A stretch of DNA of 64,000 nt from positions 76,162-140,161 of the forward strand of contig JAAYDA010000072.1 of the NCBI GenBank assembly GCA_012729505.1. The letters run 5' to 3'. Source of the stretch: Syntrophomonadaceae bacterium. Lineage in GTDB: Bacteria; Bacillota; Syntrophomonadia; Syntrophomonadales; DTU052. The translations under genes and the position numbers were made by a program. This document shows positions 5,384 to 58,580 of the stretch, piece after piece. The notes under the pieces are model-generated. The model did no database searches and was not told the DNA's origin. It saw nothing but the letters and a program-made list of their open reading frames with translations. The number at the start of each line of letters is the position of its first letter. Position 1 is the stretch's first letter.

Positions 5384-6315
5384 TAGCTGCCCAATGCCTC
5401 CAACAACACTTGCAGATTCCGGTTCATGATTTCAATGTAGGCTTCCGGCTCTTCGGGTCCGGTAACAGCCGGATCCAGAGTATACACCTGGGCACCGGTT
5501 TCTGTTGCAATAGTTTCCGCCGCCTTAGTTGAGTACTGGGGCTCGACGAAAATAGCCCGCACCCCGGATTGGCGTATAATATCGATAGTCTCTTTCAGCT
5601 CAGCAGCAACAGGCTCCGAACCCGGTTCCCGTTCTACAGTCGCAACAATGTTTAACCCAAACTCCTGGGCAAAATAGGGAAATGCCTCATGAAATGTAAC
5701 TATATTCCGATCTTCCAGGGAATCCAGCTGAGCATGCATTTCACTTTTAAGTTCCTCTAATTTCCGGATATAGTTTTGAGCATTACTCTGGTAACCCTGA
5801 GCATTATTGGGATCTGTTGCGGCCAGTTGATCGGCGATATTCTGAACCTGCTCCATGGCCAAAGAAATACTTACCCAAATATGAGCGTTCTTTTCGTGGT
5901 GATTATCTTCAATAAGCTCAATTCCCTCACTGGCATCTACTATTTTCAGTTCCGGCTGCTGAGCTATGACCTGATCGAGAAAGCTTTCCATATGGGCTCC
6001 ATTGACAACTAATATCTGAGCCTTATGTATTTTTTTCAAGTCATTGGTGGTCAACTGGTAATCATGAAGGCAGCCGGTCACTGTACCCGTCACATTTACC
6101 GCTTCTACCCCAGGTATATCCTGAGTCACATTGAGTACCATAATGTACATGGGATAAAACGAGGTGGCAATTACTAAGTTGTCTGATTCTTCTTGGCTGG
6201 TAGCAGCCGGATCGTTTCCGCATCCGGATAAGACAAAAGTCTGTGCTGCCAGAAAAAAGGCTAGTAGTATTCCAGAACACCATTGTTTTCGTGTCCAAAA
6301 GCGTCTTTTTTTCAT
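5383..6315 (-). CDS. Metal ABC transporter substrate-binding lipoprotein (TroA/ZnuA-like)
   Basis: 310-aa ORF with a signal peptide and lipobox (LSGCG). It has the cluster-9 binding-protein layout and a short His-rich segment (DNHHEKNAH). It is the first gene of the three-gene ABC operon. Confidence 0.8.
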   Translation of the reverse strand: MKKRRFWTRKQWCSGILLAFFLAAQTFVLSGCGNDPAATSQEESDNLVIATSFYPMYIMVLNVTQDIPGVEAVNVTGTVTGCLHDYQLTTNDLKKIHKAQILVVNGAHMESFLDQVIAQQPELKIVDASEGIELIEDNHHEKNAHIWVSISLAMEQVQNIADQLAATDPNNAQGYQSNAQNYIRKLEELKSEMHAQLDSLEDRNIVTFHEAFPYFAQEFGLNIVATVEREPGSEPVAAELKETIDIIRQSGVRAIFVEPQYSTKAAETIATETGAQVYTLDPAVTGPEEPEAYIEIMNRNLQVLLEALGS

Positions 6316-6480
6316 TTTGTTCCTCCTATGAGCAATCTACTAAAAGACCGTGGATATACCCGGCATAATTCAGTCTTTTCGTCAGATAATGCCTTAATCA
6401 CATTATAGCGCAACTTGTCTGCTCTAAACCTCCTTATAAAAATAATTCGCATGAATCCTCCAAATAATATAATTCATAGT

Positions 6481-6582
6481 TTATCCGATGACTAATCTGC
6501 CCTTGGGCAGTTAAGTCCCTGGATCCGTGCGACTAAGATTCTGATGGAGTCAAAACTCCACCTGAATCAAGTCTTATTTTAT
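6481..6582 (+). repeat. Dispersed structured intergenic repeat, copy b (short variant lacking the internal GC hairpin)
   Basis: TTATCCGATGACTAATCTGCCCTTGGGCAGTTAAGTCCCTGGATCCGTGCGACTAAGATTCTGATGGAGTCAAAACTCCACCTGAATCAAGTCTTATTTTAT. It matches copies a, c and d except that about 34 nt (TAAGACCCCCGCCTCTATAGGCGGCGGGTGCC) are absent. Confidence 0.85.
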
Positions 6583-6769
6583 TGAGCTTGGTGATGGCTT
6601 ATGTCTGCCAAATAAACTCTTTTTGCGTACATCCTTTGCTAAACGGGTTCTGGTTCTTTCCCTCTTGTTTTTCGGGCTTTACTATTGTAGATTGAAATGG
6701 ATTGTTGTTTTGAGATTCTTGGTGGTATCATAACTTCTGTGACAATAATTATGAGGCAGGCGTAGTACC

Positions 6770-8176
6770 ATGGCTGAACGTATTGAAGTCCGGAATAAAA
6801 TATTATTGGTGGCAACTCTGGCTGCTTTCCTCAGCCCTTTTATGGGCAGCTCTTTGAATCTAGCAATTCCTGCTATCGGCCAGGATTTAGATGGTAATGC
6901 TATCATGATTAACTGGATAATAACCGCCTTCCTTCTGGTTTCAGCAGCCTTTCTATTGCCTTTCGGCCGTTTGGCCGATATGCGCGGACGTAAAATAATC
7001 TTCGTAAGTGGAGTGGGAGTCTTCGGCACCGCTTCTTTGTTGTGTGGTGCAGCAAATTCCATGATGTTTCTATTATTGGCACGTATCGTACAAGGTCTGG
7101 GCGCCACCATGATGTTTTCCACCAGCATGGCTCTGGTAACGGCCGCTTTTCCCCCCCAGGACCGGGGCAGGGTACTGGGGCTAAATGTTGCCGCAGTATA
7201 TGTGGGCCTTTCGGTTGGACCGGCTCTGGGTGGTTTTGTGACTCAACACCTGGGCTGGCGAAGCATCTTTTATCTGGTAGCCTTTTTGAGCATCCTGGTT
7301 GCGTGGGCTTCTTACAAATGGCTGCCGAATGACCGTCACCGGGCTGAAAACGAAGAGTATGACCTTTTAGGTGCCGGATTGATTGTGGCCAGCCTGATGG
7401 CCTTAATTTATGGAGCATCCACCCTCCATACTGTCTCGGTGGGACCTGTCCTTGCTATCCTGGGCACCATTGGGATAGGAGGATTTGTGTGGCAAGAGCT
7501 TCGGGCGCCCAACCCCATTCTCGACATAAAGAATTTGATTTCTAATACCACCTTCATTATGTCTAATCTAGCCGCCCTCATCAATTTTAGTGCCACCTAT
7601 TCCATTGTCTACTTGTTGTCTCTTTATCTTCAGGTGATTCGTGGCTTTAGTGCTCAGGCGGCAGGTTTCATCCTGTTGATTCAGCCTGTATTAATGGCTA
7701 TTGTCTCACCCTATGCGGGACGGCTTTCTGACCGGTTCGAGCCTCAGATAGTAGCCAGTATCGGTATGTCCTTGACTGCCGTTGGCCTGGCCGTTTTAGT
7801 GACCATCGACTACAACACCAGCATATGGCTTATTGCCGGGGTCTTACTGCTTCAGGGCCTTGGTTTTGCCCTGTTTGGCAGTCCTAACATGAATGCAGTT
7901 ATGAGTTCTGTGGATCGCAGATTTTATGGAGTGGCTTCCTCAACTACCGGGACTATGCGTCTGGTGGGTCAAGCCCTTAGCATGGCCCTGGTGTCATTCA
8001 TCTTTGCCGCTAATCTCGGTGATGCCAAAATAACTTCGGCCATTGCCCCGGAGCTGTTGAGCAGCTCCAAGATGGCTTTCGGGATCTTTACCGTTTTATG
8101 TTTCGCAGGGGTTTTTGCCTCTTTATCCCGGGGAAAAGTGCATACCAGGGAAACTCCTCCCTCTGAAAGTCATTAA
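6770..8176 (+). CDS. MFS transporter, 14-TM DHA2 (EmrB/QacA-like) drug:H+ antiporter family
   Basis: 468-aa ORF with about 14 hydrophobic segments and the MFS motif GRLADMRGRK after TM2. Confidence 0.75.
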   Translation: MAERIEVRNKILLVATLAAFLSPFMGSSLNLAIPAIGQDLDGNAIMINWIITAFLLVSAAFLLPFGRLADMRGRKIIFVSGVGVFGTASLLCGAANSMMFLLLARIVQGLGATMMFSTSMALVTAAFPPQDRGRVLGLNVAAVYVGLSVGPALGGFVTQHLGWRSIFYLVAFLSILVAWASYKWLPNDRHRAENEEYDLLGAGLIVASLMALIYGASTLHTVSVGPVLAILGTIGIGGFVWQELRAPNPILDIKNLISNTTFIMSNLAALINFSATYSIVYLLSLYLQVIRGFSAQAAGFILLIQPVLMAIVSPYAGRLSDRFEPQIVASIGMSLTAVGLAVLVTIDYNTSIWLIAGVLLLQGLGFALFGSPNMNAVMSSVDRRFYGVASSTTGTMRLVGQALSMALVSFIFAANLGDAKITSAIAPELLSSSKMAFGIFTVLCFAGVFASLSRGKVHTRETPPSESH

Positions 8177-8240
8177 CCACAAAAATGATTGTTCCCTGAA
8201 TGATTTCCGGCTGTACAAAGCTTATAAAGGTGTGTTGGGG

Positions 8241-8927
8241 ATGAATGTGAAAATTGAAGCTTGGACTGGAATAAAAGCGGCAGTTCCCGTTATCTTAGCC
8301 TATATGCCCCTGGGGCTGGCTTTTGGGGTACTGGCAAATGAAGTAGGCCTGACCGTATCTGAGGCCACCTTGATGTCGGCTCTGGTCTTTACCGGTGCGG
8401 GCCAATACATTGCCATCGGCCTGCTGGCGGCGGGAGGATCGGCCTTTACAATTATAATGGCCAATTTTCTGGTTAACATCCGGTATCTGTTATTTTCTGC
8501 TTCATTGGTACCGCATCTTAAGAAGATTCCTACCGGTCTGGCTTCTGTTTTGATGTTGGGATTGACTGATGAAACTTATGCAGTTGCCGCAGTTCATCTT
8601 CGCGAAAATGAGGCTACTGTACCTTACCTGGCCGGACTGAATCTTAGTTCTTATCTTTCATGGGTAGCCAGCACCTGTCTGGGGGCCGGCATAGGCCATA
8701 TGATTGCCAATACTGATCAATTAGGGTTAAATTTCGCTCTGCCGGCCATGTATACTATTCTGCTGATTTTGGTTATCAGCAGCCGCAAGCATTTGGCAGT
8801 TGCAATCATAGCGGTTGTGCTGTGTTTGCTAATCGCCTTTTTGTTCCCCTCTACTCTTGGCAACCTTTCAAATATTATTGCAGCCACCCTTGTGGCTGCT
8901 ACGGCAGGGGTGATGATAAAACGATGA
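8241..8927 (+). CDS. azlC: AzlC-family branched-chain amino acid exporter subunit
   Basis: The ORF-track frame 8115-8927 is trimmed to ATG at 8241 (MNVKIEAWTGIKAA...), which is preceded by AAAGG. It is a polytopic membrane protein, and the ATGA overlap with the following small AzlD-like gene is the classic azlCD arrangement. Confidence 0.7.
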   Translation: MNVKIEAWTGIKAAVPVILAYMPLGLAFGVLANEVGLTVSEATLMSALVFTGAGQYIAIGLLAAGGSAFTIIMANFLVNIRYLLFSASLVPHLKKIPTGLASVLMLGLTDETYAVAAVHLRENEATVPYLAGLNLSSYLSWVASTCLGAGIGHMIANTDQLGLNFALPAMYTILLILVISSRKHLAVAIIAVVLCLLIAFLFPSTLGNLSNIIAATLVAATAGVMIKR

Positions 8928-16795: not shown

Positions 16796-18631
16796 CTATC
16801 TTCTGCGCTTAAAAAGCCAGGCCAGTACTATTGCGGCAATGATTGCAGCCGTTGACGGAATCAACCAACCAGCCGGCTGAACGTCAGAATCAGATGCTCT
16901 ATCCTTTTTGCCTCCCGGCTGCATACCATCCGGCCTGAATCTATCTTCGCCATCCCCCGGTCTCATGTTTCCTTGGTCACCGGCCATCATCTCCAGAAGC
17001 TCATCTGGAATGCCTAACTCCTTCGCCTCTTCCTTAAGCTGATCAGTCAGACTGCCTTCTTCCTGAATCTTGTGGCGAAATTCCTCCAGCTCTTCCCGCC
17101 CTATATCATCAGGCAGTGCCATGCCAGGAGGAGCTGCCTGCATATTAGGCCTTTGATTGCCCTCGTTGTTCCGGCCCGCCGGAGGTCGTCCGCCTTCCAT
17201 GGCCGGGAATTGCTGTCCGCCAGTCCCTTCTCCTTCCGGCATTGGCCGTTGTTGATCCCCGCCTTTGCCTTTCATGCCATCTGAACCATTGCCACTATTT
17301 GTTGAGGGCATCTCCCCCCTGAGCTGTTTCAAAATGCTATCGCCGGCGGTGGCCGCCAGTTCCATGATTCCAGGAACATTCTTGCCCAAGCCACCTGCTC
17401 CGGAAGGGGCCTGAAGGAAATTCTGCTCCTCTTCTTCGGCCATGACTCCGCCTTCAATGGTACCGGCAATACTTTCCTCAAACTGTTGATAGGTATAAAA
17501 AGCTGTAGGATCAGTTTTCACATATTCGCTGATCAAGTCAAAAAGGCGCGATGTTTCATCCTGCAAATATTCACCCTGTAAATACCCGGTAACCATCTGC
17601 AGCAGATATTCATGATATGTTTCCCGATATTTTTCGTTCTCTAACAGCTTGGCGACCAGTGGTCTGTCAGCCACCGTCCCCTGAACAGGCTCATCGATAT
17701 ATATTCCGCCAGAGCCGCCAAACCCGCCAAAAGACATGTTTAAGTCCCAGGGCAGAATGGTAAAGACCCCGCCCTGTTCATACAGATAGTAATTATGACC
17801 GAAATTGCCCAGATAGCTGTCAAAGTTGGCCAGAGCAGTGTTAACTGCAATATATTTTAAGGCCTGATCAACATCCAGGTATTTTTCTATATCATCACCG
17901 CCATTGTTTAACACATCCAGCATCTTGATAAGCTTTGACCAATCGGCATTTTTCAGGCTGCTCTTGACCTCTAAGCCGCTATAATCAGATTTACTGTCAC
18001 CGTTGTACTTCAGGGTGTTGCCCACAGACTTATACAGATCCCCAGTCACATCACCGAAGTTTTGAGCCAGATACGGCTCCAGAATACTCTCAACCGCTAA
18101 ATAAAGCCCGAAATACTCTCCATTCACATAAACTGCCGCATAAGCGAAAGCAGGCACAGGCACTCCCATTTCCTCAAATATCTGATATGACAGATACTCA
18201 CGCATATATGACAGATCAGAAAAGCAGTTGTTCAGGTTTAGCTGGGTCAGTCCCTCCAGGGTCTGATTCTCGATGAGATCGCCAAAGTTTATCTTAAAGC
18301 TATAGCGGCTGCTGTCACTATGTGCTACCGATGAAAGGCTGGAATTACCTTTAGCTCTGACGTTAACCAACGGATACACATCCCCATTGACCACCACCGT
18401 CCCAGTCTTGTATTCTTCCAGGGAGGCATTGGCCAGAATGTCATCCCAATCATCCTCACTGATTTGTATATCCACCGTCATCACTTTATCTTTTTGAAAA
18501 TACTTCTCAATATATTGCTGATTCGATAATGACATAACACCTGACTTGGTATATTGGCCGGAGGCGGCAAGTATAAGTCCTGTGAAAAGCACCATTACCA
18601 TAACCAGCGGTATGAATCCGCGCTTATACAT
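16796..18631 (-). CDS. cotH: CotH-family (atypical kinase fold) protein with an N-terminal signal/anchor, a Gly/Pro/Glu-rich linker and a C-terminal hydrophobic anchor
   Basis: 611-aa ORF. The region VNVRAKGNSSL...YSFKINF...LNLNNCFSDLSYMREYLSYQIFEEMGVPVPAFAYAAVYVNGEYFGLYLAVE matches the CotH domain pattern I know. The C-terminus is ...WLIPSTAAIIAAIVLAWLFKRRR. Confidence 0.75.
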   Translation of the reverse strand: MYKRGFIPLVMVMVLFTGLILAASGQYTKSGVMSLSNQQYIEKYFQKDKVMTVDIQISEDDWDDILANASLEEYKTGTVVVNGDVYPLVNVRAKGNSSLSSVAHSDSSRYSFKINFGDLIENQTLEGLTQLNLNNCFSDLSYMREYLSYQIFEEMGVPVPAFAYAAVYVNGEYFGLYLAVESILEPYLAQNFGDVTGDLYKSVGNTLKYNGDSKSDYSGLEVKSSLKNADWSKLIKMLDVLNNGGDDIEKYLDVDQALKYIAVNTALANFDSYLGNFGHNYYLYEQGGVFTILPWDLNMSFGGFGGSGGIYIDEPVQGTVADRPLVAKLLENEKYRETYHEYLLQMVTGYLQGEYLQDETSRLFDLISEYVKTDPTAFYTYQQFEESIAGTIEGGVMAEEEEQNFLQAPSGAGGLGKNVPGIMELAATAGDSILKQLRGEMPSTNSGNGSDGMKGKGGDQQRPMPEGEGTGGQQFPAMEGGRPPAGRNNEGNQRPNMQAAPPGMALPDDIGREELEEFRHKIQEEGSLTDQLKEEAKELGIPDELLEMMAGDQGNMRPGDGEDRFRPDGMQPGGKKDRASDSDVQPAGWLIPSTAAIIAAIVLAWLFKRRR

Positions 18632-18721
18632 ATTTTCCCCTCCTTCCGGGGGCAGTTGTCTTCTCTGTTAGTCCAAACCCAGCGCCGGAGAGCCGGTACT
18701 CCCCTTTTGCGTGGTTAGCCG

Positions 18722-19399
18722 CTAAGATGCATATTCGCCGTTGTAGCTTACCAAAGCAGTATTGGTAATCCCGGGAAGGGCTGCCATCTCGTTAATAAAT
18801 GAAGTCTCCCCATTCCTCATGCGAACTTCAAATACCAATTCCACACCTCGGGCAGGTGCAACAGTTTTCGACTTAACCCGGTACTTGGGAAAAACTCTTT
18901 TTACCAGAGACACAGCACCTGATTCAGCCTCCTCATCAATACAATTAACCATCAGGATGTAGGGGGTATCTGCCACATTATTGCCCGCAAAAGCTATTAA
19001 GAGCAAACCGATTACTACTGAACCCAATACTGCCAAAGGGATAAATCCCGCACCCAAAACTATTCCTCCGCCTATGGCCCAAAACAGAAAGACCAGATCC
19101 ATAGGGTCTTTGATAGCGGTACGGAATCGCACAATTGACAATGCGCCAACCATCCCCAGCGACAGAACAATATTGGATGTCACCGCAAGGATGATGAAGG
19201 TAGTCAGCATGGTCAAGGCCACCAGAGAAATATTAAATGGCCGCGAATACATAATCCCCGAAAAGGTCTTTTTGTAAATCAGATAAATAAACATGCCGAT
19301 AAGGAAAGCCGCGGCTAAAGCTATCCCTGCATCAGCCAGGGAAAAGGATGCCGCCTTTTCCAAAAAACTTGATTTAAATATGTCGTTGAATGTGGTCAT
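18722..19399 (-). CDS. DUF4956-like polytopic membrane protein
   Basis: 225-aa ORF with 4-5 TM segments and a cytoplasmic C-terminal domain. It contains the motif VRFRTAIKDPMDLVFLFWAI. It sits between the VTC and CotH genes, as in the conserved triad I recall from Clostridia. Confidence 0.55.
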   Translation of the reverse strand: MTTFNDIFKSSFLEKAASFSLADAGIALAAAFLIGMFIYLIYKKTFSGIMYSRPFNISLVALTMLTTFIILAVTSNIVLSLGMVGALSIVRFRTAIKDPMDLVFLFWAIGGGIVLGAGFIPLAVLGSVVIGLLLIAFAGNNVADTPYILMVNCIDEEAESGAVSLVKRVFPKYRVKSKTVAPARGVELVFEVRMRNGETSFINEMAALPGITNTALVSYNGEYAS

Positions 19400-19429
19400 T
19401 ATCTTTCCTCCTTTTGTTATGAGTAGGGA

Positions 19430-20143
19430 CTACATATAGGCCCGGCAGGCAGCATATTTGGAAAGGGCTGCCGAAGTGCATTTATTTAGCTGAATTAAAT
19501 CCTGAATGAAATCAGGCAGAAATTCATCATACTTGACCTCCAATACACACCGGCCGTCCAAAACAGGCACACTGGGCAAATCATTATCAAAGATATCCAG
19601 GGAAGTAACCGATGCTCTGATATCCCGATCAATAGTTACCCGCACATTTCCCGGCGGGAAATAGTAAGCCTCTCGTCTATAATCTACTACTGTTTTAGGC
19701 GCCAGCCTTTCCGTCCGGAGCTTGACATAAAAATGTCTAAGTAAGGCCTGCTCCGAGTTAGCCAGGAAAGATGTGTCGCCATGCAAAATCCATTGCACCT
19801 CTTCCTTTTGCAGCCTGGCTTTTTCCTTAAAGCCATGGTTAAAATGTTTGATCTTTTTCTCCAGGCGGATAAAATCAGGGTCGTGATTATAAAAGCGGAT
19901 ACGAAATTTTTCCTTTATCGGGATTCCGTCAATCTTATCATAAAGAGCCCGGTCTTCCGGGGTATCAAAATAAAGACTGCGGATATGATATTGACCATCA
20001 CTTCCCGCACTCTGATCCCGGGGCAGAATACCGGATAATCTCCTGCCTGTTATCAGAGCGTCGCCCTCCGAAATTACATGTTTCAACTCATAACGATACT
20101 TAAGAGCTTTCATATCTTTCTCCATCCGGCCATAAAAAGCCAT
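19430..20143 (-). CDS. VTC-domain (polyphosphate polymerase / CYTH-like tunnel fold) protein
   Basis: 237-aa ORF with RYELKH near the N-terminus, IRSLYFDT, RIRFY and LEVKYD-type beta-strand motifs. These are typical of VTC/CYTH tunnel enzymes. Confidence 0.6.
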   Translation of the reverse strand: MAFYGRMEKDMKALKYRYELKHVISEGDALITGRRLSGILPRDQSAGSDGQYHIRSLYFDTPEDRALYDKIDGIPIKEKFRIRFYNHDPDFIRLEKKIKHFNHGFKEKARLQKEEVQWILHGDTSFLANSEQALLRHFYVKLRTERLAPKTVVDYRREAYYFPPGNVRVTIDRDIRASVTSLDIFDNDLPSVPVLDGRCVLEVKYDEFLPDFIQDLIQLNKCTSAALSKYAACRAYM

Positions 20144-20269: not shown

Positions 20270-21865
20270 TCAGGAGGGATTTGCATTCATAAACCGTACC
20301 AAAAAACCGGTTCCATTGGGTCCGGTGTCGATGTCTATTTTGGCATTGTGCCGATTGGCAATACTGTAGCATATGGCCAGACCCAAACCCGTTCCACTAT
20401 CTTTAGTGGTAAAAAAGGGAGTGCCTATTTTATCAGCTATAGCCGGGTCTATTCCTTTGCCCTCATCTTGTACCGCTAAAACAACTTCATCTTCTTCAAC
20501 ATATGTTTTTATGGTTAAGATACATTTCGTATCCATTGCTTCAATACCATTTCTGACCAGGTTTAAAATTACTTGCCGTATTTCACCTTGATCCATTAGC
20601 ATGTCGGGAATCTCCCCTAATAATATCTTTAATTCCATGCCTTCCTTGAGGGCGGCGGAACGTAATAAAGGCTCCATGGAAATGATAATATCGTTTAAAT
20701 TTAACAGGGTTTTTTCCACGATTTTGCTTTTAGCCATATTCAAAAACTCTGTAATTATTGAATTTGCCCGGTCAAGCTCTTCGATCATTAAATTAAAAAG
20801 CTCGCCTTCCTGCTTAAACTCCTCACGGGTACCCATAAGCTGCAAGAATCCCCGTACCGTAGTCATAGGATTCCTGATTTCATGACCTATTCCGGCAGCA
20901 ATTTCCCCTACCATATGCAATCTGTCTACCCGTGCCATTTCTTTCTCAATTTCTTTATCGGAGGTAATGTCCTCTGATACTCGCAAATAACTGGTTAACT
21001 GTTCGTTATCAAATATCGGTATTATGGAAACCATTTCCGAGATGACTTCTCCGTCCTTGCGAATCGATTCAAATTCCCCGCTCCATTCATTAGTCTCCGC
21101 AACTTTTTTTAGTATGTCTTCGATTTCCTGCATATAGGCAGGATTGAGAAAATACATGGGTTTACCTTGGGCATCTGCCCTTTGGTATCCGGTGATATCA
21201 CCGAATTTCTTGTTTACATATTCAATAATTCCGTTTTTATCGGTTATCATCACCAGGCTGGGGCTCTGTTCGACCGCACAGGTAAGCCGATAAAGACTTT
21301 TTATATTATTCTTCAAAGCATTTCTGGATAGTCTCTCCATTTCTACAGTATTGCCGATATACCAGCCCGTAACTAAAATGATGCCGATAAAAACCAGATT
21401 ACTTTCTATTATGTTAGCCACCGGCATAGCCGGATAAATTATTTTCTGATGTGATATCTGAATTATTACACAGGCAATAGCTGTTATGAGACCGCCTCGC
21501 AGCCCCAAGGATGAAGCCGCAAAAAGCACCGGAAGAATCAGGGCCAGGGAAAAAAAAGTGGAATCATGGCGTGATAAAAAAATAGCAACAATAGTAACTG
21601 CCATTAAGATCACAATATAAACGATATTGTTAAATAACGAGTACTCATTATCTTTCATGATATAGGTGTTAAAGTAGATCGATACAATTACTACCCCAAC
21701 AAAAACAGCAATTATATATCCCCTCAAGCCGTATGCTGGAAAAATGTCTCCGGTAAAATCATTGCTTAACACTAAACCCAAACCTAGAATGAACATGCTT
21801 ATAAAATGAGCCAGTTCCAGAGTGTCATAGGTCTTTTGTTCATATTTCTTGTCTAATCTGTTCAT
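20270..21865 (-). CDS. Orphan sensor histidine kinase: about 6 TM segments, PAS, HisKA and HATPase, with a sporulation-kinase-like H-box
   Basis: The ORF-track frame 20270-21985 is trimmed to ATG at 21865 (MNRLDKKYEQ...). The upstream 120 nt are occupied by agrD and a terminator hairpin. The H-box is GIGHEIRNPMTTVRGFLQLM, and DEGKGI and GTGLGLAI motifs are present. No response regulator is adjacent. Confidence 0.8.
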   Translation of the reverse strand: MNRLDKKYEQKTYDTLELAHFISMFILGLGLVLSNDFTGDIFPAYGLRGYIIAVFVGVVIVSIYFNTYIMKDNEYSLFNNIVYIVILMAVTIVAIFLSRHDSTFFSLALILPVLFAASSLGLRGGLITAIACVIIQISHQKIIYPAMPVANIIESNLVFIGIILVTGWYIGNTVEMERLSRNALKNNIKSLYRLTCAVEQSPSLVMITDKNGIIEYVNKKFGDITGYQRADAQGKPMYFLNPAYMQEIEDILKKVAETNEWSGEFESIRKDGEVISEMVSIIPIFDNEQLTSYLRVSEDITSDKEIEKEMARVDRLHMVGEIAAGIGHEIRNPMTTVRGFLQLMGTREEFKQEGELFNLMIEELDRANSIITEFLNMAKSKIVEKTLLNLNDIIISMEPLLRSAALKEGMELKILLGEIPDMLMDQGEIRQVILNLVRNGIEAMDTKCILTIKTYVEEDEVVLAVQDEGKGIDPAIADKIGTPFFTTKDSGTGLGLAICYSIANRHNAKIDIDTGPNGTGFLVRFMNANPS

Positions 21866-21880
21866 CTTCGGCCTCTTGAT

Positions 21881-21904
21881 AAAAGGTGGGCGAACCCACC
21901 TTTT
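21881..21904 (-). terminator. Hairpin terminator immediately after agrD
   Basis: AAAAGGTGGG-TTCG-CCCACCTTTT is a perfect 10-bp stem with a tetraloop, flanked by A and T runs. It starts 5 nt after the agrD stop codon. Confidence 0.7.
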
Positions 21905-21908
21905 ATCC

Positions 21909-22040
21909 TTACTTTCTAAGGGTTGGCGGAACTTCTGGCTGATATGCTGATACTGCGCAGGCACTGGCGGAAAACACTTGTGCAAAAAGGGTTAGCAGCA
22001 TAATGGCTAATGCAAGCAGCTTAGGAGTCATTTTTCTCAT
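21909..22040 (-). CDS. agrD: AgrD-like cyclic autoinducing-peptide precursor (43 aa), absent from the ORF track
   Basis: Hand translation gives MRKMTPKLLALAIMLLTLFAQVFSASACAVSAYQPEVPPTLRK. GGAGG lies 8 nt upstream of the ATG. The ORF overlaps the last 20 nt of agrB in another frame. It has a single Cys, and the Cys-to-Pro spacing (10 residues) and the EVP motif match S. aureus AgrD-I (YSTCDFIMDEVEVP). Confidence 0.75.
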   Translation of the reverse strand: MRKMTPKLLALAIMLLTLFAQVFSASACAVSAYQPEVPPTLRK

Positions 22041-22686
22041 CCTGTTCACCTCCTTTATTTAATTTACCTACAAACAACAGGTCAATTTGCTGCAGGGCTT
22101 TAAAGCCCATCTTATGCACCAGGAAGCTTACCCACAGCACACTAAGGCCTGTGACCGCCTGTATTTCGTAATTTAACTGCAGCTGCATTACAACCGCCGC
22201 TAAAAACAGTATCAGAGTTATGATAATGGATAGTATCTTCAGCCTTTTTCTTCTTAAATCGGAAACGATGGGGGCTTTGTGATTTTCCGCCGGGGCCAGG
22301 TAAAGCATGGTCAACAGGCCGATCAATAAAGAAGCATAGGCAAATATAGGAGTAAAGCCACCCAATGACCGGGCAAGCAGCTTGCCGGTTATGGCTATGA
22401 TCGGAAAGATTGAAATGGTAATTACCGAACAGCAGTATACTGATTCACTATGGGCGCCTCCGGCAGTATGCCGGTAAGCGAAGACAATCAAGCAACTGAT
22501 AATAGTGCCGGTCACTACTCCCAGCAGCCAGCCCACCAAAATGGCCAAGGCCACATTCAGAATATTAAGAGCCAGCATATCAAGGGCATAGGCCAGCACC
22601 AGCCGCGTTTCCTCATTGCTATTGGTTTTTTCCGCTAAGTAACCTGCAATACGGCTGCTGATCATGGAATAGCTCAAACACTCCAC
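22021..22686 (-). CDS. agrB: AgrB-family membrane peptidase (AgrD processing and export); start codon uncertain (GTG 22686 or ATG 22665)
   Basis: 221-aa polytopic ORF containing FAYRHTAGGAHSESVYCCSV. This corresponds to the conserved R-H-x-A-x-G-x-H...C catalytic His/Cys region of AgrB. Confidence 0.8.
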   Translation of the reverse strand: MECLSYSMISSRIAGYLAEKTNSNEETRLVLAYALDMLALNILNVALAILVGWLLGVVTGTIISCLIVFAYRHTAGGAHSESVYCCSVITISIFPIIAITGKLLARSLGGFTPIFAYASLLIGLLTMLYLAPAENHKAPIVSDLRRKRLKILSIIITLILFLAAVVMQLQLNYEIQAVTGLSVLWVSFLVHKMGFKALQQIDLLFVGKLNKGGEQDEKNDS

Positions 22687-23135
22687 TCCCCATGTGATTT
22701 CTTTTTGGTTTTAGCTATGATAAAGGCCAGCAAAAACATTACCAAGATCTGTGGTGTAGCCACCATCTTCCAGATAAGCTCATTTTCTTTTATAATGCTG
22801 GGATCCAGGCCGGTTACGGCAAATACAGTTTGTACGCAAATATATTCTACAATTAGGATGGTTACAAAGGTAATCATACTGAAGGTAAAGGCTTGCTTGG
22901 GACTGATGGTTGTGGTCTTTAATAGAATAAAGGTCAGCAACAGGGTGGCCAGCAAAGTATGAAGGCCAAAATGCATTTGCAGCATCCGGATCAGGTATAT
23001 GGCGACAGTCAGTACTAAACCTATTGGAATAACCTTTTTCCAGTGCAAAGGAATGCCGGCCAAGGCCAGGCAGAAAGCTGCACATGCCGTTAATTCCGGT
23101 ATTCCATGTATAAAAAACAATAAAAAATTCTTCAT
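22674..23135 (-). CDS. Hypothetical 5-TM membrane protein, first gene of the agr-like operon
   Basis: The frame 22674-23147 likely starts at the second ATG (23135, MKNFLLFFIHG...), because AAAGGATGGG then serves as the RBS. It has five hydrophobic segments and no family I recognise. Its stop codon overlaps the agrB start region. Confidence 0.5.
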   Translation of the reverse strand: MKNFLLFFIHGIPELTACAAFCLALAGIPLHWKKVIPIGLVLTVAIYLIRMLQMHFGLHTLLATLLLTFILLKTTTISPKQAFTFSMITFVTILIVEYICVQTVFAVTGLDPSIIKENELIWKMVATPQILVMFLLAFIIAKTKKKSHGEWSV

Positions 23136-23326
23136 ATCTTGTCCCATCCTTTATTATATAAAATATGACATTATGCTCAATTATTCCTTTTAAATGTTGA
23201 CAAAATCTTCCGACATATTGTGATGTTTAGTGTCACATTTCACTATCCTAGACTCCCCAAACATCCCCAAAATGTCGAAATACAAGGGTCTCGCCCCCTT
23301 GTTTTTTTCTGTGGTTTCTTTATTGG

Positions 23327-24781
23327 TTAATGGGATTGTTTTCCTGGCAAGGATGGAAATCTGATGATAAAGGAAGCTCCCTGGTGGGTGTCAGCTGCCT
23401 CGATTGTTCCGTGATGCTGTTCCACTACCGATTTTACAATGGACAGGCCGATGCCGTTAATGCCTCCCCGGCCTTTGTAAAATCGATCGAAGATATGGGG
23501 CAGGTCGGTTGGAGATATGCCTTCTCCGTCGTCGATTACTGCCACGACAATCTGGTCGTCATGGCGATGACATACCAGCGTAATCTTGCTGTCAGCATAG
23601 CGAATTCCATTAGATATCAGGTTGGTGAATGCCCGGGTAAGGAATTTTTCATCACAGTAGATTTCCACCGGCCGCTCATCAAAATCAAAACTGATCTGAA
23701 TTTCTTCCTTGTGAGCCTGTCTTACCAGCCGCTCAGCCGCATTGGACAAAAGCTCCCGCAGGTCCTGCTCCTCCCACTGGCCGTCAGGAGATATGTTGTG
23801 AATGCGGGAAATACAGAGAAGCTCTTCCACCATTTCGCTCAATCTGTCGGTTTCGCTGATTATGACCGCACTGGATTTATCATTATTTATAATTCCCCGT
23901 TGAATACCTTCGGCGTTATTTCGTATTGCTTGCAGGGGAGTTCTTAATTCGTGGGATACGTTCTGAAAAAACGTCTTCTGCTCCCGTTCATAGGCTTCGA
24001 GTTGAGCGGCCGCTTTGTTCATGCTGTCTGATAGCTGGGCCAATTCCAAATCCCGATACTCGTTATCACCGGTAGTGAAATCACCTTGCCCAATGCGTAT
24101 TGCAAAGTCGGTCAGCTCTCGAACAGGCCGGGCGATTTTTCCGGATAACAAAACAGTCATAACCATAGCCATTATTCCTCCCAGACCCATGACTACCAGC
24201 AAAACCATATTAATCCGGGACGCGAAGCCGGCCAGGGAGGTCATATCCATGTAATAAACCATATAGATTCTGTTCTCAGTCTTATTTTCTGCTGTCGGAC
24301 TAATAACCAGACGGTACTCTCTGGAGACAGCGCTGATACTAATGATTTCACCGCTATGCAAATCAGCCTTATTCTTCTTCAGCTCCTGGGAGATGGCCAC
24401 AATTTCATCATAATTACGGATAAAAATCATATCCACAGTTGGATAAACCAGCTCGTAATCCTGGTTGATTACTATTGTCTCCGCTTTGCCTACAGGACCT
24501 CGGGGGAGCTTTCCCATATCGGGAACAGATGTGGAAGGGACAGGAAAGAAGATTGACCCCTCTGGAGACACCCAGGGCCGGTTTCTCATGTCGCCCATAA
24601 TCCTGACGGTTTCTTCCAGCTGTGCCCTGACGTTGCTGTTGATATACTCCCCTACCAGCACATTGAATACAGCTATAATCACCAGAAATATGGCGACAAT
24701 AAGTGATAATACCATAACCATAATCCTGGTCCGGATACTGATTTTACCCTTCAGAACCTTACTCATCTGCTTCAACTTCAT
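23327..24781 (-). CDS. Sensor histidine kinase (2 TM, HAMP, HisKA and HATPase)
   Basis: 484-aa ORF with H-box VSHELRTPLQAI and motifs DDGEGI and GIGLSIV. Confidence 0.8.
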   Translation of the reverse strand: MKLKQMSKVLKGKISIRTRIMVMVLSLIVAIFLVIIAVFNVLVGEYINSNVRAQLEETVRIMGDMRNRPWVSPEGSIFFPVPSTSVPDMGKLPRGPVGKAETIVINQDYELVYPTVDMIFIRNYDEIVAISQELKKNKADLHSGEIISISAVSREYRLVISPTAENKTENRIYMVYYMDMTSLAGFASRINMVLLVVMGLGGIMAMVMTVLLSGKIARPVRELTDFAIRIGQGDFTTGDNEYRDLELAQLSDSMNKAAAQLEAYEREQKTFFQNVSHELRTPLQAIRNNAEGIQRGIINNDKSSAVIISETDRLSEMVEELLCISRIHNISPDGQWEEQDLRELLSNAAERLVRQAHKEEIQISFDFDERPVEIYCDEKFLTRAFTNLISNGIRYADSKITLVCHRHDDQIVVAVIDDGEGISPTDLPHIFDRFYKGRGGINGIGLSIVKSVVEQHHGTIEAADTHQGASFIIRFPSLPGKQSH

Positions 24782-25487
24782 GTTCCTTTAAGCGAAAACC
24801 AAAACCCCATACCGTGTCGATTCGCATTTTACTGTTCACCAGCTTTTTACGCAGTCTTCTGACGGTGTCGTCTGCAGCCCTGGTTTCCGCTTCACTGTTG
24901 TATCCCCATAGCTTGTTAAGCAGTTCATCACGGGAAACGGCCCGGTGTTTATTGTCTATAAGGTAGCAGAGCAAATTAAATTCATTAGGAGTCAGCTCCA
25001 GCTTAATATCTCCCATCATAACAGTTTTGTTGTTTACATTTATTATTATATCCGCATACTCCAATACCGCTGCAGATTGGTTTGCGGGACTGTTTTTTTC
25101 AAATTCGATCCGGCGGAAAATAGCCTTGACTCGCATTACAAGAGACATGGCGGAAAATGGTTTGGTAAAATAGTCGTCACTGCCCAGATTTATACCGGTG
25201 GCGTAATCGATATCAGCATCGCGGGCGGTCAGCATAATGACAGGCACGGTACTGATCTTCCGCAATTCGGAACATACCTGAAATCCGCTCATCCCCGGCA
25301 TCATCACATCCAATATCACCAGGTCACAAGGTTCTTGCCCAAACCGGGCCAGCAGCTTTTCTCCATCCTCGAAAGCAGTTACTTGGTAGCCTTCACTTTC
25401 CAGAAAAGCCTTGACCACTTCGCGGATATTTTCTTCATCATCGGCAATATAAATGTGCAGACTAATACTGAACACCTCCATTTTCAC
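24759..25487 (-). CDS. OmpR-family response regulator
   Basis: 242-aa ORF. The receiver domain (IYIADDEENIRE...DVMMPGMSG) is followed by a winged-helix domain (LTPNEFNLLCYL...WGFGFRL). It overlaps the downstream kinase gene. Confidence 0.8.
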   Translation of the reverse strand: MKMEVFSISLHIYIADDEENIREVVKAFLESEGYQVTAFEDGEKLLARFGQEPCDLVILDVMMPGMSGFQVCSELRKISTVPVIMLTARDADIDYATGINLGSDDYFTKPFSAMSLVMRVKAIFRRIEFEKNSPANQSAAVLEYADIIINVNNKTVMMGDIKLELTPNEFNLLCYLIDNKHRAVSRDELLNKLWGYNSEAETRAADDTVRRLRKKLVNSKMRIDTVWGFGFRLKEHEVEADE

Positions 25488-44651: not shown

Positions 44652-46265
44652 TTAGTCCGAATACATTTTTTTCAGATCCTGTTTAAGCACCTTGCCGGAG
44701 GGGTTCTTCGGTAATTCGGCGACGAATTCCACGAACTCCGGAACCTTGTATTTTGCGATCTTATCGCTCAGGTAGTCTTTCACCTCCTGGGCGGTCATGC
44801 TTTCACCCGGATTTAAGGCGATGCAGGCCCGGACGCGTTCACCCAGAGCAGTATCTGGTGCTCCAATGACAGCCACTTCTAATATTTTCGGATGCTTTTC
44901 CAGCGGTATTTCAATCTCCCTCGGATAAATGTTTTCACCGCCGCGGTTAATCATTTCTTTCTTGCGGCCGGAAATATAGAGGAAGCCCTGTTCATCCATC
45001 CAGCCCATATCTCCGGTGTGCAGCCAGCCATCCTTGACGGTCTCGGCAGTTGCTTCCGGCTTGTTGAGATAGCCGATCATGACAGCGTCGCCTTTCATGC
45101 AGATCTCACCCTTTTCACCGTAAGGAAGAATATTATTATCATCATCCATGATCTCTATTTCCTGGGAGGCGTAGGCAGTTCCAACTGCGGCCCAGTTCTC
45201 AGGAGTGCCATAACCGGAAGTAGAAACGCCGCAAACTTCAGTAAGACCATAACCGTCTATAACGCGAACCCCGAACTTATCTTTGAAAGATTGCACTATA
45301 TCCAACGGCATGGGAGCGGCTCCGGAAAAAGCGTAACGCAGCTTTACCTTGTCCATTTCAATCGTCGAGGGGTCTACCGAGTTTACAATGTATTGGTACA
45401 TGGCCGGAACCCCCATCACAATAGTAACACCGTACCTGGTGCAGGAGGGCCAGAATTCGTCCGGAGAGAAGATTCTGCGAATAACAAAGGAAATCCCTTG
45501 GTAGCTGTAGGGATACGTCCATACACACAGGGGATTAGTATGAAACATGGGCAGGAGTATCATCATGACATCCTCTGCAATATTGGCGCCCATGGAGGCC
45601 ATGTCCTTACATATGGAAAACTCGCCCTTGTTAGACAACAATATGCCTTTAGGCATACCCGTAGTTCCCGAGGAATAAAGGAGCAGGAACGGATCATCCG
45701 GTGACTGCGGAACCAGGCATTCGTCAGCGGGGTAGGTGTCCATAATAGCCTTGAGAGTTGTCTGGGCAATATCAGTATCATGGGGAATACCGGTTTCTAC
45801 TTCAACAACGATGGGCTTGTGAGCTGACATTTGGTAACCGCGGGCAAACTCGGCCATGAACTCGCTGCAGACAAAAGCGACCTTGGGTTTGGAATCTTCG
45901 AGAACGTAAGCTATTTCAGGCCCTTTCAGCATGTAGTTGACACCGCCGGCTATGGCGCCCAGCTTCTGTGCGCCAAAGGTTGTGTACCAAACATCGGGAG
46001 AGTTAAGGATCATGATGGAAACGATATCTCCTTTGACAACCCCTTTTTCCTTGAGATAGTTGCCTATTTTATTGGAGCGCTCGTTGGTCTGGCGGTAGGT
46101 AATGACTTCATCGTAGTAGTAACAGTGGATCTTGTCAGGGATTTCCTGACATCGGGTGGTGATCATTTCCGCCATGCTGTCAAACTCCAGCCGCAGACCC
46201 TTCATGTGCTCGACTCCCTCAATCGGGAAAACCTCTCTGATGAATCGTTTGCTTTTGTCGATCAT
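44652..46265 (-). CDS. AMP-dependent acyl-CoA synthetase/ligase
   Basis: 537-aa ORF with YSSGTTGMPKG, GYGLTE, TGDMG and PKNPSGKVLK motifs. Confidence 0.85.
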   Translation of the reverse strand: MIDKSKRFIREVFPIEGVEHMKGLRLEFDSMAEMITTRCQEIPDKIHCYYYDEVITYRQTNERSNKIGNYLKEKGVVKGDIVSIMILNSPDVWYTTFGAQKLGAIAGGVNYMLKGPEIAYVLEDSKPKVAFVCSEFMAEFARGYQMSAHKPIVVEVETGIPHDTDIAQTTLKAIMDTYPADECLVPQSPDDPFLLLYSSGTTGMPKGILLSNKGEFSICKDMASMGANIAEDVMMILLPMFHTNPLCVWTYPYSYQGISFVIRRIFSPDEFWPSCTRYGVTIVMGVPAMYQYIVNSVDPSTIEMDKVKLRYAFSGAAPMPLDIVQSFKDKFGVRVIDGYGLTEVCGVSTSGYGTPENWAAVGTAYASQEIEIMDDDNNILPYGEKGEICMKGDAVMIGYLNKPEATAETVKDGWLHTGDMGWMDEQGFLYISGRKKEMINRGGENIYPREIEIPLEKHPKILEVAVIGAPDTALGERVRACIALNPGESMTAQEVKDYLSDKIAKYKVPEFVEFVAELPKNPSGKVLKQDLKKMYSD

Positions 46266-46414
46266 TACTATTCCCCTTTCCCATTTGATACTATTTAATG
46301 ACTGTAATGAAATTTACGCACGAAGTTCAATATGCATGTATTTCTAGAACCCATTATTAGTCGGGCACCGCTGCTAAAGGTTCTGTTCTGCTAACGGATT
46401 CTGGTTTTCTGACC

Positions 46415-47908
46415 CTATACCCCCAATATCTTTATTTTTGGATCCGCAACTGACATGCCGGCCAGCTTATAAACCGCTTCTCTTCTTTTCTTTATATCGT
46501 ACTGGCTGGTGATGGCGATCTGTTCCATAATCGGGGATCCTCCGCCATGATAGTTGCCGTAATTTCCCGATCCGGCGGAATGGGATGTGGTAGCGTCCAC
46601 AAACATCAGCCAGAATTTCCACTGATCCTCCACGGGAATATTGGGATTGCGGTTGATGTATTTTTCCAAAAACGGCCTCAGTTCAGGATTCAGCAGATCC
46701 TTTTCAGTAGGGAAGGTGGCCGGAATACCGCCCGCGATATTACAAAGAATCTCCTGTTCGTGGAAAACGGCTTCTCCGGTCAAACACCGGCCCACATTGG
46801 CGTAAATGGAATTGGGGATGTAGCTGCCGGGGCCGTAAGGGACCGGACCGTATCCCGGCACATATACCTCGGGTTTGCCCAGGGAGGATGCCGTGAATCC
46901 TGCGGCATATCCTAATTCAGCAGTCATAATCAGTTCCGAAAGCATTGCTCTCACATGATCCGTCTTTTCAATGCCGTTAATATGCGCAGCTCCCGCCGCC
47001 AGTCCCAGGATAAAGTCCAGGCAGGCCGGTTTGCAGCCGGAATAGCTATGGCGATGGAACAGAGCAAACAGCAAAGCCGCTATTCCGCCGTGGTTTACCT
47101 CTCCACACAAGAATACCCGCTCCCAGGGAATGAAGGTATCGTCAAAAATGATGTAGGAATCAGTATAGCCTGATCTCTTGGCACTGGGCAGAAGTTCCCG
47201 TTTGGAAGCATTGTGGAAGGAAACAACCTGCTTGATTTCCGGATGATCAGATGGGATAGCGAAGCATACCGCATAATCACTCTCATCTTTGGTCAGGGCG
47301 CGGTTAGGCACTACCAAGATCTCGTCCGAAATGGACGCTTCCGAGATATGGACTTTGCAGCCTCGCACCACTATACCATCGCTCTTTCTCTCCACCACCC
47401 GCAGATACTGGTCCGGGTCTGTCTGCTGGGACGGCCTTTTCAGCCTTTCGCCCTTGACATCGGTCTGAGCGCAGCTGGCTACCAGGTCGTTGGCCTGAAA
47501 ATATTCCAGCCACTTGAGCCAATTGGTATAATAATCGGTTCCCCGGTCAGGAATTTTGCTCGCCTCGAAAGAAACGGCATTTATGGCATTGGCGGCGTCA
47601 ATGCCCATACATCTCTGGATACAAGTGCCGACCTGGTTGCAGAGGAGCCTGGTCATATCTTGCTTCTTGTGCAGGTCATCAGTACTTTGATGGATGTGAT
47701 TGAACCGGTTGATGGTCTGACCGTTCAAATGGGAGGTGGCGGTACACAGATCCTTGAACTCCGGATCAAAGGCAGCCTCAAATGTTAATCCCATCACATT
47801 GATGGCGCCTTCCTGCATGGGATCGAGCCGGTCGATTTTCGCTCCGTTAAAATAAAGATTAGAATTCTTCTTCCCCAAATCCGCAATATATTGGGCTTTG
47901 GTTCTCAT
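46415..47908 (-). CDS. abfD: 4-hydroxybutyryl-CoA dehydratase / vinylacetyl-CoA isomerase-like protein (4-hydroxyphenylacetate 3-hydroxylase superfamily)
   Basis: 497-aa ORF. Its overall layout, and a CIQRC Cys pair at the position where AbfD carries [4Fe-4S] ligands, support the call. The substrate assignment is an inference. Confidence 0.65.
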   Translation of the reverse strand: MRTKAQYIADLGKKNSNLYFNGAKIDRLDPMQEGAINVMGLTFEAAFDPEFKDLCTATSHLNGQTINRFNHIHQSTDDLHKKQDMTRLLCNQVGTCIQRCMGIDAANAINAVSFEASKIPDRGTDYYTNWLKWLEYFQANDLVASCAQTDVKGERLKRPSQQTDPDQYLRVVERKSDGIVVRGCKVHISEASISDEILVVPNRALTKDESDYAVCFAIPSDHPEIKQVVSFHNASKRELLPSAKRSGYTDSYIIFDDTFIPWERVFLCGEVNHGGIAALLFALFHRHSYSGCKPACLDFILGLAAGAAHINGIEKTDHVRAMLSELIMTAELGYAAGFTASSLGKPEVYVPGYGPVPYGPGSYIPNSIYANVGRCLTGEAVFHEQEILCNIAGGIPATFPTEKDLLNPELRPFLEKYINRNPNIPVEDQWKFWLMFVDATTSHSAGSGNYGNYHGGGSPIMEQIAITSQYDIKKRREAVYKLAGMSVADPKIKILGV

Positions 47909-58407: not shown

Positions 58408-58446
58408 AGAACCCCCCCTTTTTAAAGGAACCCGATCTGAAAGAAG

Positions 58447-58580
58447 ATAAAGTAAGACTTGATTCAGGTGGAGTTTTGACTCCATCTGAATCTTAGTCGC
58501 ACGGATCCAGGGACTTAACTGCCTTTGGGCACCCGCCGCCTATAGAGCGGGGGTCTTAGGGCAGATTAGTCATCGGATCA
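58447..58580 (-). repeat. Dispersed structured intergenic repeat, copy d (consensus orientation on the minus strand)
   Basis: The reverse complement is near-identical to copies a and c. It lies between the cimA stop codon and the multi-PAS gene start. Confidence 0.85.

Follow-up and report, generated by a model that had tools for sequence, protein, structure and literature searches.

The agrBDCA system of Staphylococcus aureus combines a membrane peptidase, AgrB, with a catalytic His and Cys, a peptide precursor, AgrD, which has an amphipathic leader and, five residues ahead of a conserved, proline-rich recognition tail at its C-terminus, a Cys (Ser in some agr systems), an HPK10-type sensor kinase, AgrC, with a SPOB_a/HATPase_c_5 core, and a LytTR response regulator, AgrA. 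The operon is autoinduced by its peptide. Some clostridia carry agrBD without adjacent agrCA. In Clostridium perfringens, two uncharacterised genes, CPE1563 and CPE1562, are co-transcribed upstream of agrBD (PMC2706048), and in Clostridioides difficile, the AgrD1 peptide promotes sporulation by a route described as unknown (PMC11210211). Here we analysed a 64,000-nucleotide stretch of a Syntrophomonadaceae bacterium genome (contig JAAYDA010000072.1, positions 76,162 to 140,161; hereafter the window), whose minus strand carries an agrBD pair between a gene for a five-transmembrane (5-TM) protein and a gene for an orphan sensor kinase with a 6-TM domain, which we denoted TM_A. The locus bears on two open questions, namely which protein senses the peptide in agrBD loci without agrCA and which signals activate sporulation kinases, few of which have a known signal.

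Read along the minus strand, the cassette consists of a promoter-like site, the 5-TM gene, agrB, agrD, a strong hairpin and the kinase gene with its 6-TM, PAS and HisKA domains. Its features, and the hairpin that precedes it, are as follows.

23282 to 23302, minus strand: hairpin at the end of the OmpR-type two-component operon that precedes the cassette; delimits the cassette on its 5' side without belonging to it.
23153 to 23180, minus strand: promoter-like site TTGAGC-16 nt-TATAAT, a consensus match only (10/12 positions).
22674 to 23135, minus strand: stand-alone 5-TM protein, 153 amino acids (aa); start at the second ATG, which has an AGGA-type ribosome-binding site (RBS).
22021 to 22677, minus strand: agrB, 218 aa, membrane peptidase/cyclase (Pfam AgrB PF04647, 2.9e-31).
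21909 to 22040, minus strand: agrD, 43 aa, MRKMTPKLLALAIMLLTLFAQVFSASA followed by CAVSA and YQPEVPPTLRK (TIGR04223, 26.4 bits against a cut-off of 19).
21945 to 21959, minus strand: codons of the predicted AgrD ring CAVSA.
21878 to 21907, minus strand: GC-rich hairpin GATAAAAGGTGGG-TTCG-CCCACCTTTTATC with a 13-bp stem (free energy, dG, -19.3 kcal/mol), directly 3' of the agrD stop codon.
20270 to 21865, minus strand: orphan sensor kinase, 531 aa; start at ATG 21865 with the RBS AAGAGG.
21296 to 21865, minus strand: 6-TM domain TM_A of the kinase, six hydrophobic helices.
20960 to 21274, minus strand: PAS domain of the kinase (Pfam PAS_9, 6.2e-15).
20726 to 20908, minus strand: HisKA domain of the kinase (Pfam), with the H-box GHEIRNPMTTVRGFLQL and His328 at 20882-20884.
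20294 to 20593, minus strand: HATPase_c domain of the kinase (Pfam).

A first-pass annotation made from the sequence had listed the 5-TM gene, agrB, agrD, the hairpin and the 6-TM PAS kinase on this strand, and all of them were recovered by Pfam and NCBIfam matches, an AlphaFold2 model and folding; the hairpin that it had placed between the cassette and the OmpR-type pair upstream (23327-25487) was found at 23282-23302. An alternative start of the 5-TM gene, the ATG at 23147, is less likely, and the kinase starts at ATG 21865 and not at TTG 21985 of the mechanical open reading frame (ORF). The number of such promoter-like sites in the region is not above shuffle expectation. The TTG start codon of agrB overlaps the 5-TM stop codon (TTGA), agrD overlaps the 3' end of agrB by 20 nt, and the gap of 12 nt between the end of the hairpin and the kinase ATG contains the kinase RBS. 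Because of the two overlaps and the lack of room for a promoter between hairpin and kinase, the four genes are read as one operon.

Like S. aureus agrBDCA, the locus has an AgrB with the catalytic His and Cys, an AgrD with the Cys five residues before the proline-rich tail, a ring that is hypervariable between relatives, and a sensor module related to the AgrC-type TM domain in the same operon. It differs in that neither an HPK10 kinase nor a LytTR regulator is encoded at the locus, the sensor-type domain is a separate 153-aa protein ahead of agrB, the transducer is a PAS kinase of the HisKA type whose 6-TM domain is unrelated, and a hairpin stands between agrD and the transducer gene. A six-frame translation of the window was queried with S. 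aureus AgrA and with hidden Markov models (HMMs) of LytTR regulators and of the HPK10 core. With these three queries no AgrC, AgrA or LytTR match was found in the translation; the weak hits were generic receiver and ATPase matches in OmpR-type pairs. The kinase beside agrBD is of the HisKA/HATPase_c type and not HPK10, and the HPK10-core model gave only weak generic ATPase hits in the window. No response regulator lies 3' of the kinase, where the next genes encode VTC, DUF4956 and CotH proteins. These results agree with the annotated lack of a response regulator after the kinase and of any LytTR protein in the window. Judged from its predicted products, the locus belongs to the agr systems by its biosynthetic half, with neither an HPK10-type AgrC nor a LytTR-type AgrA within the window.

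The layout is a conserved cassette and not a one-off. Scanning one genome per species with a three-sequence AgrB alignment gave 52 AgrB-related loci from Pelotomaculum, Desulfoscipio, Desulfotruncus, Desulfocucumis, Desulfovirgula, Syntrophomonas, Candidatus Syntrophopropionicum, D. copahuensis and many metagenome-assembled genomes (MAGs), and the six-frame ORFs of each locus were scored with purpose-built HMMs. Where enough sequence was available (48 loci), 42 loci have a stand-alone 5-TM gene immediately before agrB and on its strand, and two further loci have one at another position. Directly downstream of agrBD, a protein with the TM_A domain is encoded in 41 of the 45 loci with room for it. 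The canonical pair of HPK10 kinase and LytTR regulator was present in 1/52 loci (L021), and no regulator consistently adjoins the cassette across the set. The first-pass annotation had named synteny of the kinase with agrBD in relatives, beforehand, as the test that could refute its hypothesis; with the 5-TM gene, agrBD and a gene for a TM_A protein adjoining in about 90% of the 52 species-level loci, the hypothesis passed. Look-ups anchored on the 5-TM gene gave the same picture, with agrB adjacent in six of six closer relatives and with agreement among relatives at 25-41% identity, including a Dehalobacter MAG (L014) and Desulfoscipio gibsoniae, whose complete genome (CP003273) has the identical cassette (L013). 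A metagenome scan anchored on the kinase says little, as its patterns fell in the PAS region: 79 of 80 loci had generic PAS kinases (at most 31% identity) without TM_A, 5-TM or AgrB, and the sole full-length kinase relative (L069) stands in a complete cassette.

The association of 5-TM, agrBD and TM_A persists through rearrangements of gene order. The kinase is placed at the opposite side of the cassette in L014 (Dehalobacter) and L046, and L065 has two TM_A kinases with one 5-TM gene between them. In three loci (L052, 468-5838; L053; L061, 3186-8569), a single 5-TM-agrB-agrD set is preceded by a TM_A-GAF-PAS kinase and followed by a TM_A-GGDEF-HD-GYP protein, which suggests one peptide input with two outputs. 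Tandem copies of the 5-TM gene are frequent and were found in L005 (4876-6110), L007, L008, L017, L018, L022, L026, L029, L032, L043 (1966-3842), L068 and L069. They are mostly pairs, with a triplet in Desulfocucumis palustris (L043), and a single agrD was seen downstream; such copies could provide heteromeric sensors or several peptide specificities. What stays the same through all locus variants is the trio of 5-TM protein, AgrB and AgrD.

The 5-TM protein matched no Pfam or NCBIfam model, and sources that give it a name label it hypothetical; of the divergent family members looked up, nearly all were metagenome proteins without a name. An exhaustive profile search gave 746 representatives at 50% identity, nearly all of about 150 aa. 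Among the 150 best family members, 149 have this length, and the protein of the window is likewise stand-alone, without a covalent kinase core. An AlphaFold2 model built from 107 sequences showed five long helices with high confidence (predicted local distance difference test score 95.7, predicted template modelling score 0.90), and a Foldseek search of this model against the PDB returned nothing. The near-invariant polar residues of the family are P13/E14 (QGIPE), R50, G57/H59 (FGxHT), E97 and Q129. A manual reading by the positive-inside rule would place the N-terminus outside and the C-terminal KTKKK in the cytoplasm, and given this topology, the conserved polar residues would lie in the outer half of the helix bundle.

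The relationship of this family emerged from a group of AgrC-like kinases. The 451-aa protein P0154 carries a 5-TM domain at residues 4-141, two more helices and a kinase core whose best PDB match is S. aureus AgrC; in a library-wide search, the 5-TM profile hit it with 78.5 bits (E 5.5e-17). P0154 and P0157-P0165, from uncultured Bacillota and Thermoanaerobacteraceae, form a fused family of at least 10 proteins (37-59% identity) in which a 5-TM-like domain is followed by two TM helices and an HPK10/AgrC-like core. HHalign aligned the stand-alone family with the fused N-termini over all 147 columns (99.8%, E 1.9e-28), so that the first five TM helices of these kinases are homologous to the entire 5-TM protein of the window. 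The fused proteins also keep E14, R50, G57, H59 and E97, and the NCBIfam model of staphylococcal AgrC is colinear with them from about position 27-44 to the end. By homology, the 5-TM protein thus corresponds to helices 1-5 of an AgrC-type sensor in free-standing form, which lends support to the earlier suggestion that it may sense the peptide.

The fused genes stand in canonical surroundings, with the order agrB-agrD-kinase-LytTR in L010, agrB-agrD-kinase in L011 and L012, and an arrangement of the same type in L021; a LytTR regulator comes next to the kinase in L010 and L021. Unlike the window, these operons join the sensor to an HPK10 core through two more helices, their AgrD has a Ser and not a Cys, and the hairpin after agrD is absent. 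Fused and stand-alone 5-TM forms are mutually exclusive within loci. Furthermore, L067 has at 6001-8456 a 5-TM gene of divergent sequence (175 aa) that overlaps the gene of a 653-aa PAS-HisKA kinase with the specificity residues ASGFQL and a weak TM_A hit, no agrB or agrD was found within 6 kb of this pair, and the two may form an orphan receptor pair. Because the two forms exclude each other and the L067 pair lacks agrBD, the evidence would point to a role of the 5-TM protein in perception rather than in peptide production.

Searches for 5-TM homologues on phages or plasmids found none. An unannotated stretch of the Klebsiella pneumoniae plasmid NZ_CP061968.1 (14006-14389; tblastn, 29.5% identity over 84% of the query, E 2e-3) was set aside as probably a chance similarity of hydrophobic helices. 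One 247-aa protein, P0254, matches both the 5-TM profile and Pfam AgrB, which may reflect either a fusion of 5-TM with AgrB or an error of gene calling.

The partner of the kinase was predicted from the residues that determine HisKA specificity. Davidson et al. (2018; PMC6136694, Table 1) listed six such residues for kinases that feed Spo0F: TAGFQL, TVGFQL, TSGFQI and TGGFQL in KinA, KinB, KinC and KinD of Bacillus subtilis, and TTGFQL, TTGFQM and TTGFQF in orphan kinases of D. acetoxidans, of which Dtox_1918 (TTGFQL) was shown to phosphorylate Spo0F. Direct Spo0A kinases have NVSAQV, NISAQL or SVGLQL, and the other two predictors in that study are orphan status and a PAS domain (PMC6136694). 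We read the positions H+7, 8, 11, 12, 14 and 15, with the H-box of KinA as calibration. The six residues in the dimerisation and histidine phosphotransfer (DHp) domain of the window kinase are TTGFQL, identical to those of Dtox_1918, and the kinase is an orphan with a PAS domain, which is common though not required in phosphorelay kinases. All 41 agr-linked kinases fit (T/S)xG(F/L)Q(L/I/M), a pattern in agreement with KinA-E and Dtox_1918, with TTGFQL in 27, TTGFQI/M in 8, TSGFQL in 2 and STGFQL, TVGFQL, TTGLQI and TTGLQL in one each, whereas paired kinases nearby differ (QANNEG, TTGNEL, TAGFET). These residues support the prediction that the kinase transfers phosphate to Spo0F. The first-pass annotation had noted a sporulation-type H-box and proposed that the signal feeds a phosphorelay such as Spo0A; the TTGFQL signature sustains the link to the phosphorelay and, if the signature holds, moves the direct target from Spo0A to Spo0F.

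With KinA-E and Dtox_1918, the window kinase shares orphan status, a PAS domain and a HisKA H-box (TTGFQL as in Dtox_1918). It differs from them in lying in a peptide-signal operon, the others having no agr linkage, and by NCBIfam it is the equivalog of none of the named Kin proteins. KinB of B. subtilis is a multi-pass membrane sporulation kinase that needs a separate small polytopic membrane protein, KbaA. The window pair has the same type of arrangement as KinB/KbaA, with no sequence relation (no Pfam KbaA hit), and we know of no peptide signal for KinB/KbaA.

Beyond what had been annotated, the constant partner of 5-TM-agrBD proved to be the 6-TM domain and not the kinase itself, and 12 relatives have a GGDEF/HD-GYP output. 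The fusion partners of TM_A in the related loci are listed here.

19 loci: PAS-HisKA-HATPase.
10 loci: HisKA-HATPase without PAS.
12 loci: GGDEF and HD-GYP.
4 loci: partner cut off at the contig end.

Eight of the GGDEF and HD-GYP proteins were confirmed by Pfam, and all complete ones have the GYP motif. In the Syntrophomonas group (L041, L050, L055, L060), the GG[DE]EF motif is degenerate and the GYP motif is kept; these proteins would act only as phosphodiesterases of cyclic diguanosine monophosphate (c-di-GMP). The GGDEF/HD-GYP versions cluster in Syntrophomonas-type genomes, which would fit an exchange of outputs in organisms whose relevant response is something other than sporulation. Since TM_A is the constant domain beside 5-TM-agrBD and its catalytic outputs are swapped, we regard it as the module that couples the peptide system to the cell. 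The cassette would then be a portable peptide-input module made of the 5-TM protein, AgrB, AgrD and TM_A, with exchangeable outputs. As to the origin of TM_A, HHalign found no kinship with the 5-TM family or with AgrC-like N-termini, and hits to the KdpD-type 4-TM domain DUF4118 (PF13493) over its last four helices, which recur in several relatives, reach 17.6-25.2 bits, below the gathering cut-off of 28.4.

The catalytic His and Cys of AgrB are present, and R69, G73, G74, A75, H76 and C83 are invariant in the alignment. AgrD follows one plan in 49 loci, a hydrophobic leader, a Cys with four variable residues and a near-invariant YQPEVPxSLR[KR]; the rings include CAVSA (window), CAISH, CLISQ, CFFGH and CWAWH. 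Directly before the ring Cys, the leaders most often end in A-S-A or a similar A-x-A, and the leader of the window (21960-22040) ends in A-S-A. Because this A-x-A resembles a signal-peptidase I site, the mature peptide is probably a five-residue ring without an exocyclic tail. Tailless clostridial peptides have been reported to rearrange to homodetic cyclopeptides (PMC8251862). Divergence of the ring correlates weakly with that of the 5-TM protein (partial Mantel r 0.17, p 0.011) and with that of TM_A (r 0.13, p 0.026), and partial Mantel tests found no correlation with AgrB once 5-TM and TM_A were controlled for.

The hairpin after agrD had been annotated as a terminator, with 21881-21904 as its extent, which is the core of the hairpin at 21878-21907. 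The hairpin itself is real, but it does not appear to be a full stop: the 12-nt gap with its RBS leaves no room for a separate promoter, so the kinase must be read through the hairpin, which therefore would serve as an attenuator or stabiliser. Probably it is a leaky terminator or a stabiliser of the mRNA 3' end that would set a high ratio of agrBD to receptor. An equivalent hairpin (dG of -10 or below) follows the agrD stop codon in 40 of 49 related loci, with stems that vary in sequence (GGTGGG/CCCACC, GAGGTGG/CCACCTC, GGGGGG/CCCCCC), whereas the canonical operons L010 and L011 have none.

By descent, the locus stands closest to the canonical operons in which AgrC includes a fused 5-TM-type domain; in function, the resemblance is to the clostridial orphan agrBD loci. 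Like agrBD of C. perfringens and agr1 of C. difficile, the locus has agrBD without adjacent agrCA, and the extra genes upstream of agrB in C. perfringens, which the first-pass annotation had mentioned correctly, are alike by gene position. Unlike those operons, which lack a candidate receptor, the window encodes a sensor homologue and a transducer. We found no published description of the cassette, of a stand-alone AgrC-sensor homologue or of a link between agrBD and GGDEF/HD-GYP in a literature search of incomplete coverage.

On balance, we think it somewhat probable that the four genes serve, as a single operon, both to produce an agr-type cyclic peptide and to perceive it through a split receptor, with output to the sporulation phosphorelay. 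By family membership, AgrB would process AgrD to the ring Cys-Ala-Val-Ser-Ala. The free-standing 5-TM protein, as a detached AgrC-type sensor module, would be the peptide-binding subunit and, inside the membrane, would act on the 6-TM domain of the PAS-HisKA kinase encoded with it. The kinase, to go by its specificity residues, would phosphorylate Spo0F and so bring cell density into the sporulation phosphorelay, not into an AgrA regulon. The hairpin would pass part of the transcription and keep the receptor kinase low relative to agrBD. What computation shows is which genes make up the set and that they are conserved, both homologies, and the signature of the specificity residues; on this ground, peptide binding, protein-protein contact, phosphotransfer and attenuation are proposed. 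Extended to the related loci, the scheme is more tentative, and we would put it a little short of probable: a heteromeric, split AgrC-like receptor, with 5-TM as ligand-binding subunit and TM_A as transducing subunit fused to Spo0F-type kinases or c-di-GMP enzymes, might gate sporulation or c-di-GMP turnover.

Several observations weigh against the split receptor and its proposed output. The NCBIfam AgrC model gave no hit at E <= 0.01 to the stand-alone 5-TM protein. The homology of 5-TM is to a deep-branching AgrC-like clade, whose AgrB is only 19-23% identical to that of the window and whose AgrD has the Ser in place of the ring Cys. The partner kinases of L005 and L014 have two TM helices and an extracellular domain on the same DHp and catalytic ATP-binding (CA) core, and because their N-termini differ, a single fixed interface between 5-TM and TM_A cannot be universal. 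One component of the cassette is missing in L016 and L044, although such loci are few. The co-variation of the ring is suggestive but weak and does not separate 5-TM from TM_A as the specificity determinant. On the output side, the rule of specificity residues is degenerate and predictive only, the best-scoring models for the kinase core are AtoS and ZraS, and with 143 bits against a cut-off of 775, the kinase falls far below the KinD equivalog of NCBIfam.

The strongest alternative, which we consider possible but unlikely, is that TM_A is the sole peptide receptor and that the 5-TM protein works with AgrB on the production side, by removing the leader at the outer face, exporting the ring, or protecting or tuning AgrB. 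Such a role would suit the translational coupling of the 5-TM gene to agrB, and by the topology reading, the invariant E, R, H, E and Q of 5-TM would lie in the outward half of its helices. Glu and His motifs serve in a similar setting in intramembrane proteases, among them the CPBP family, and removal of the leader of autoinducing peptides is attributed to different proteases depending on the species. A constant 6-TM domain with variable outputs is moreover the classic signature of a sensor domain, and the ring co-varies with TM_A too. However, the same domain, with the same conserved residues, makes up five of the seven sensor helices in AgrC-like kinases of agrBDCA operons, and in those operons AgrB and AgrD manage without a stand-alone 5-TM protein. 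Neither Pfam, which gave no protease family match, nor Foldseek against the PDB points to an enzyme, and L067 pairs 5-TM with a kinase where agrBD is absent.

Rather improbable, in our judgement, is that the kinase is an output of the operon, so that induction of agr would, by read-through of the hairpin, raise the level of a sporulation kinase or a c-di-GMP enzyme, with the receptor encoded elsewhere and 5-TM as a vestigial or decoy sensor. The kinase is indeed transcribed only through the hairpin, and orphan agrBD loci with a distant receptor are known; the agr receptor of C. perfringens is VirS/VirR. The window spans only 64 kb of the genome, and the route from AgrD1 to sporulation in C. 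difficile is described as unknown (PMC11210211). However, AgrC/AgrA lies nearby in only one of the 52 related loci, and this alternative leaves three things unexplained: the conservation of TM_A beside agrBD with swapped outputs, the two flanking TM_A proteins in L052, L053 and L061, and the co-variation of the ring with TM_A and 5-TM. A chance neighbourhood of agr and kinase without functional link, to which the intervening hairpin and the lack of a response regulator might have pointed, is scarcely credible and is refuted by the synteny, since the arrangement recurs in about 90% of the 52 species-level loci, across several families and in rearranged versions, and again in L069 from the metagenome scan.

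Other genes of the window were noted in passing. Directly 3' of the kinase (16796-20143) lie a VTC-domain gene, a gene for a DUF4956 membrane protein and a gene for a CotH-family protein of 611 aa, which has a long tail rich in Gly, Pro and Glu and is anchored by a C-terminal TM segment. Terminator prediction gave nothing between the kinase and these three genes, which are not conserved beside the cassette in relatives. The OmpR-type pair immediately upstream of the cassette (23327-25487) has a HAMP-HisKA kinase with QANNEG, and a second OmpR-type pair (514-2967) has an sCache-HAMP-PAS kinase with TAGFET. In the Pelotomaculum loci L019, L040, L042 and L065, an unrelated kinase-regulator pair (TTGNEL) lies divergently upstream of the cassette. 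At 56854-58485, a 543-aa protein consists almost wholly of PAS (four stretches matched by Pfam PAS), with no output domain detected in the ORF. A PAS-containing sigma-54 activator (48196-50424) lies beside genes whose products are enzymes of the 4-hydroxyphenylacetate-hydroxylase-like and AMP-binding types (44652-47908), possibly an aromatic-acid catabolic cluster.

The locus is an agr variant with two undescribed membrane modules, in a form that is conserved but undescribed. It defines two uncharacterised membrane modules, the 5-TM family and the agr-linked 6-TM domain, and its relatives indicate that agr input can be wired to c-di-GMP enzymes. To both questions raised at the outset, the cassette offers a genetically linked candidate, with a peptide, a homologue of a sensor domain and a kinase with a Spo0F-type signature in one operon that is conserved in at least 50 species. 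If the extended scheme is true, agr-type peptides would directly gate c-di-GMP turnover in Syntrophomonas and, in syntrophs and sulfate reducers that form spores, the initiation of sporulation. Pelotomaculum, Syntrophomonas, Desulfoscipio and Dehalobacter play key parts as syntrophs and dehalogenators in anaerobic digesters and sediments, where density-dependent control of dormancy or attachment could have practical weight.

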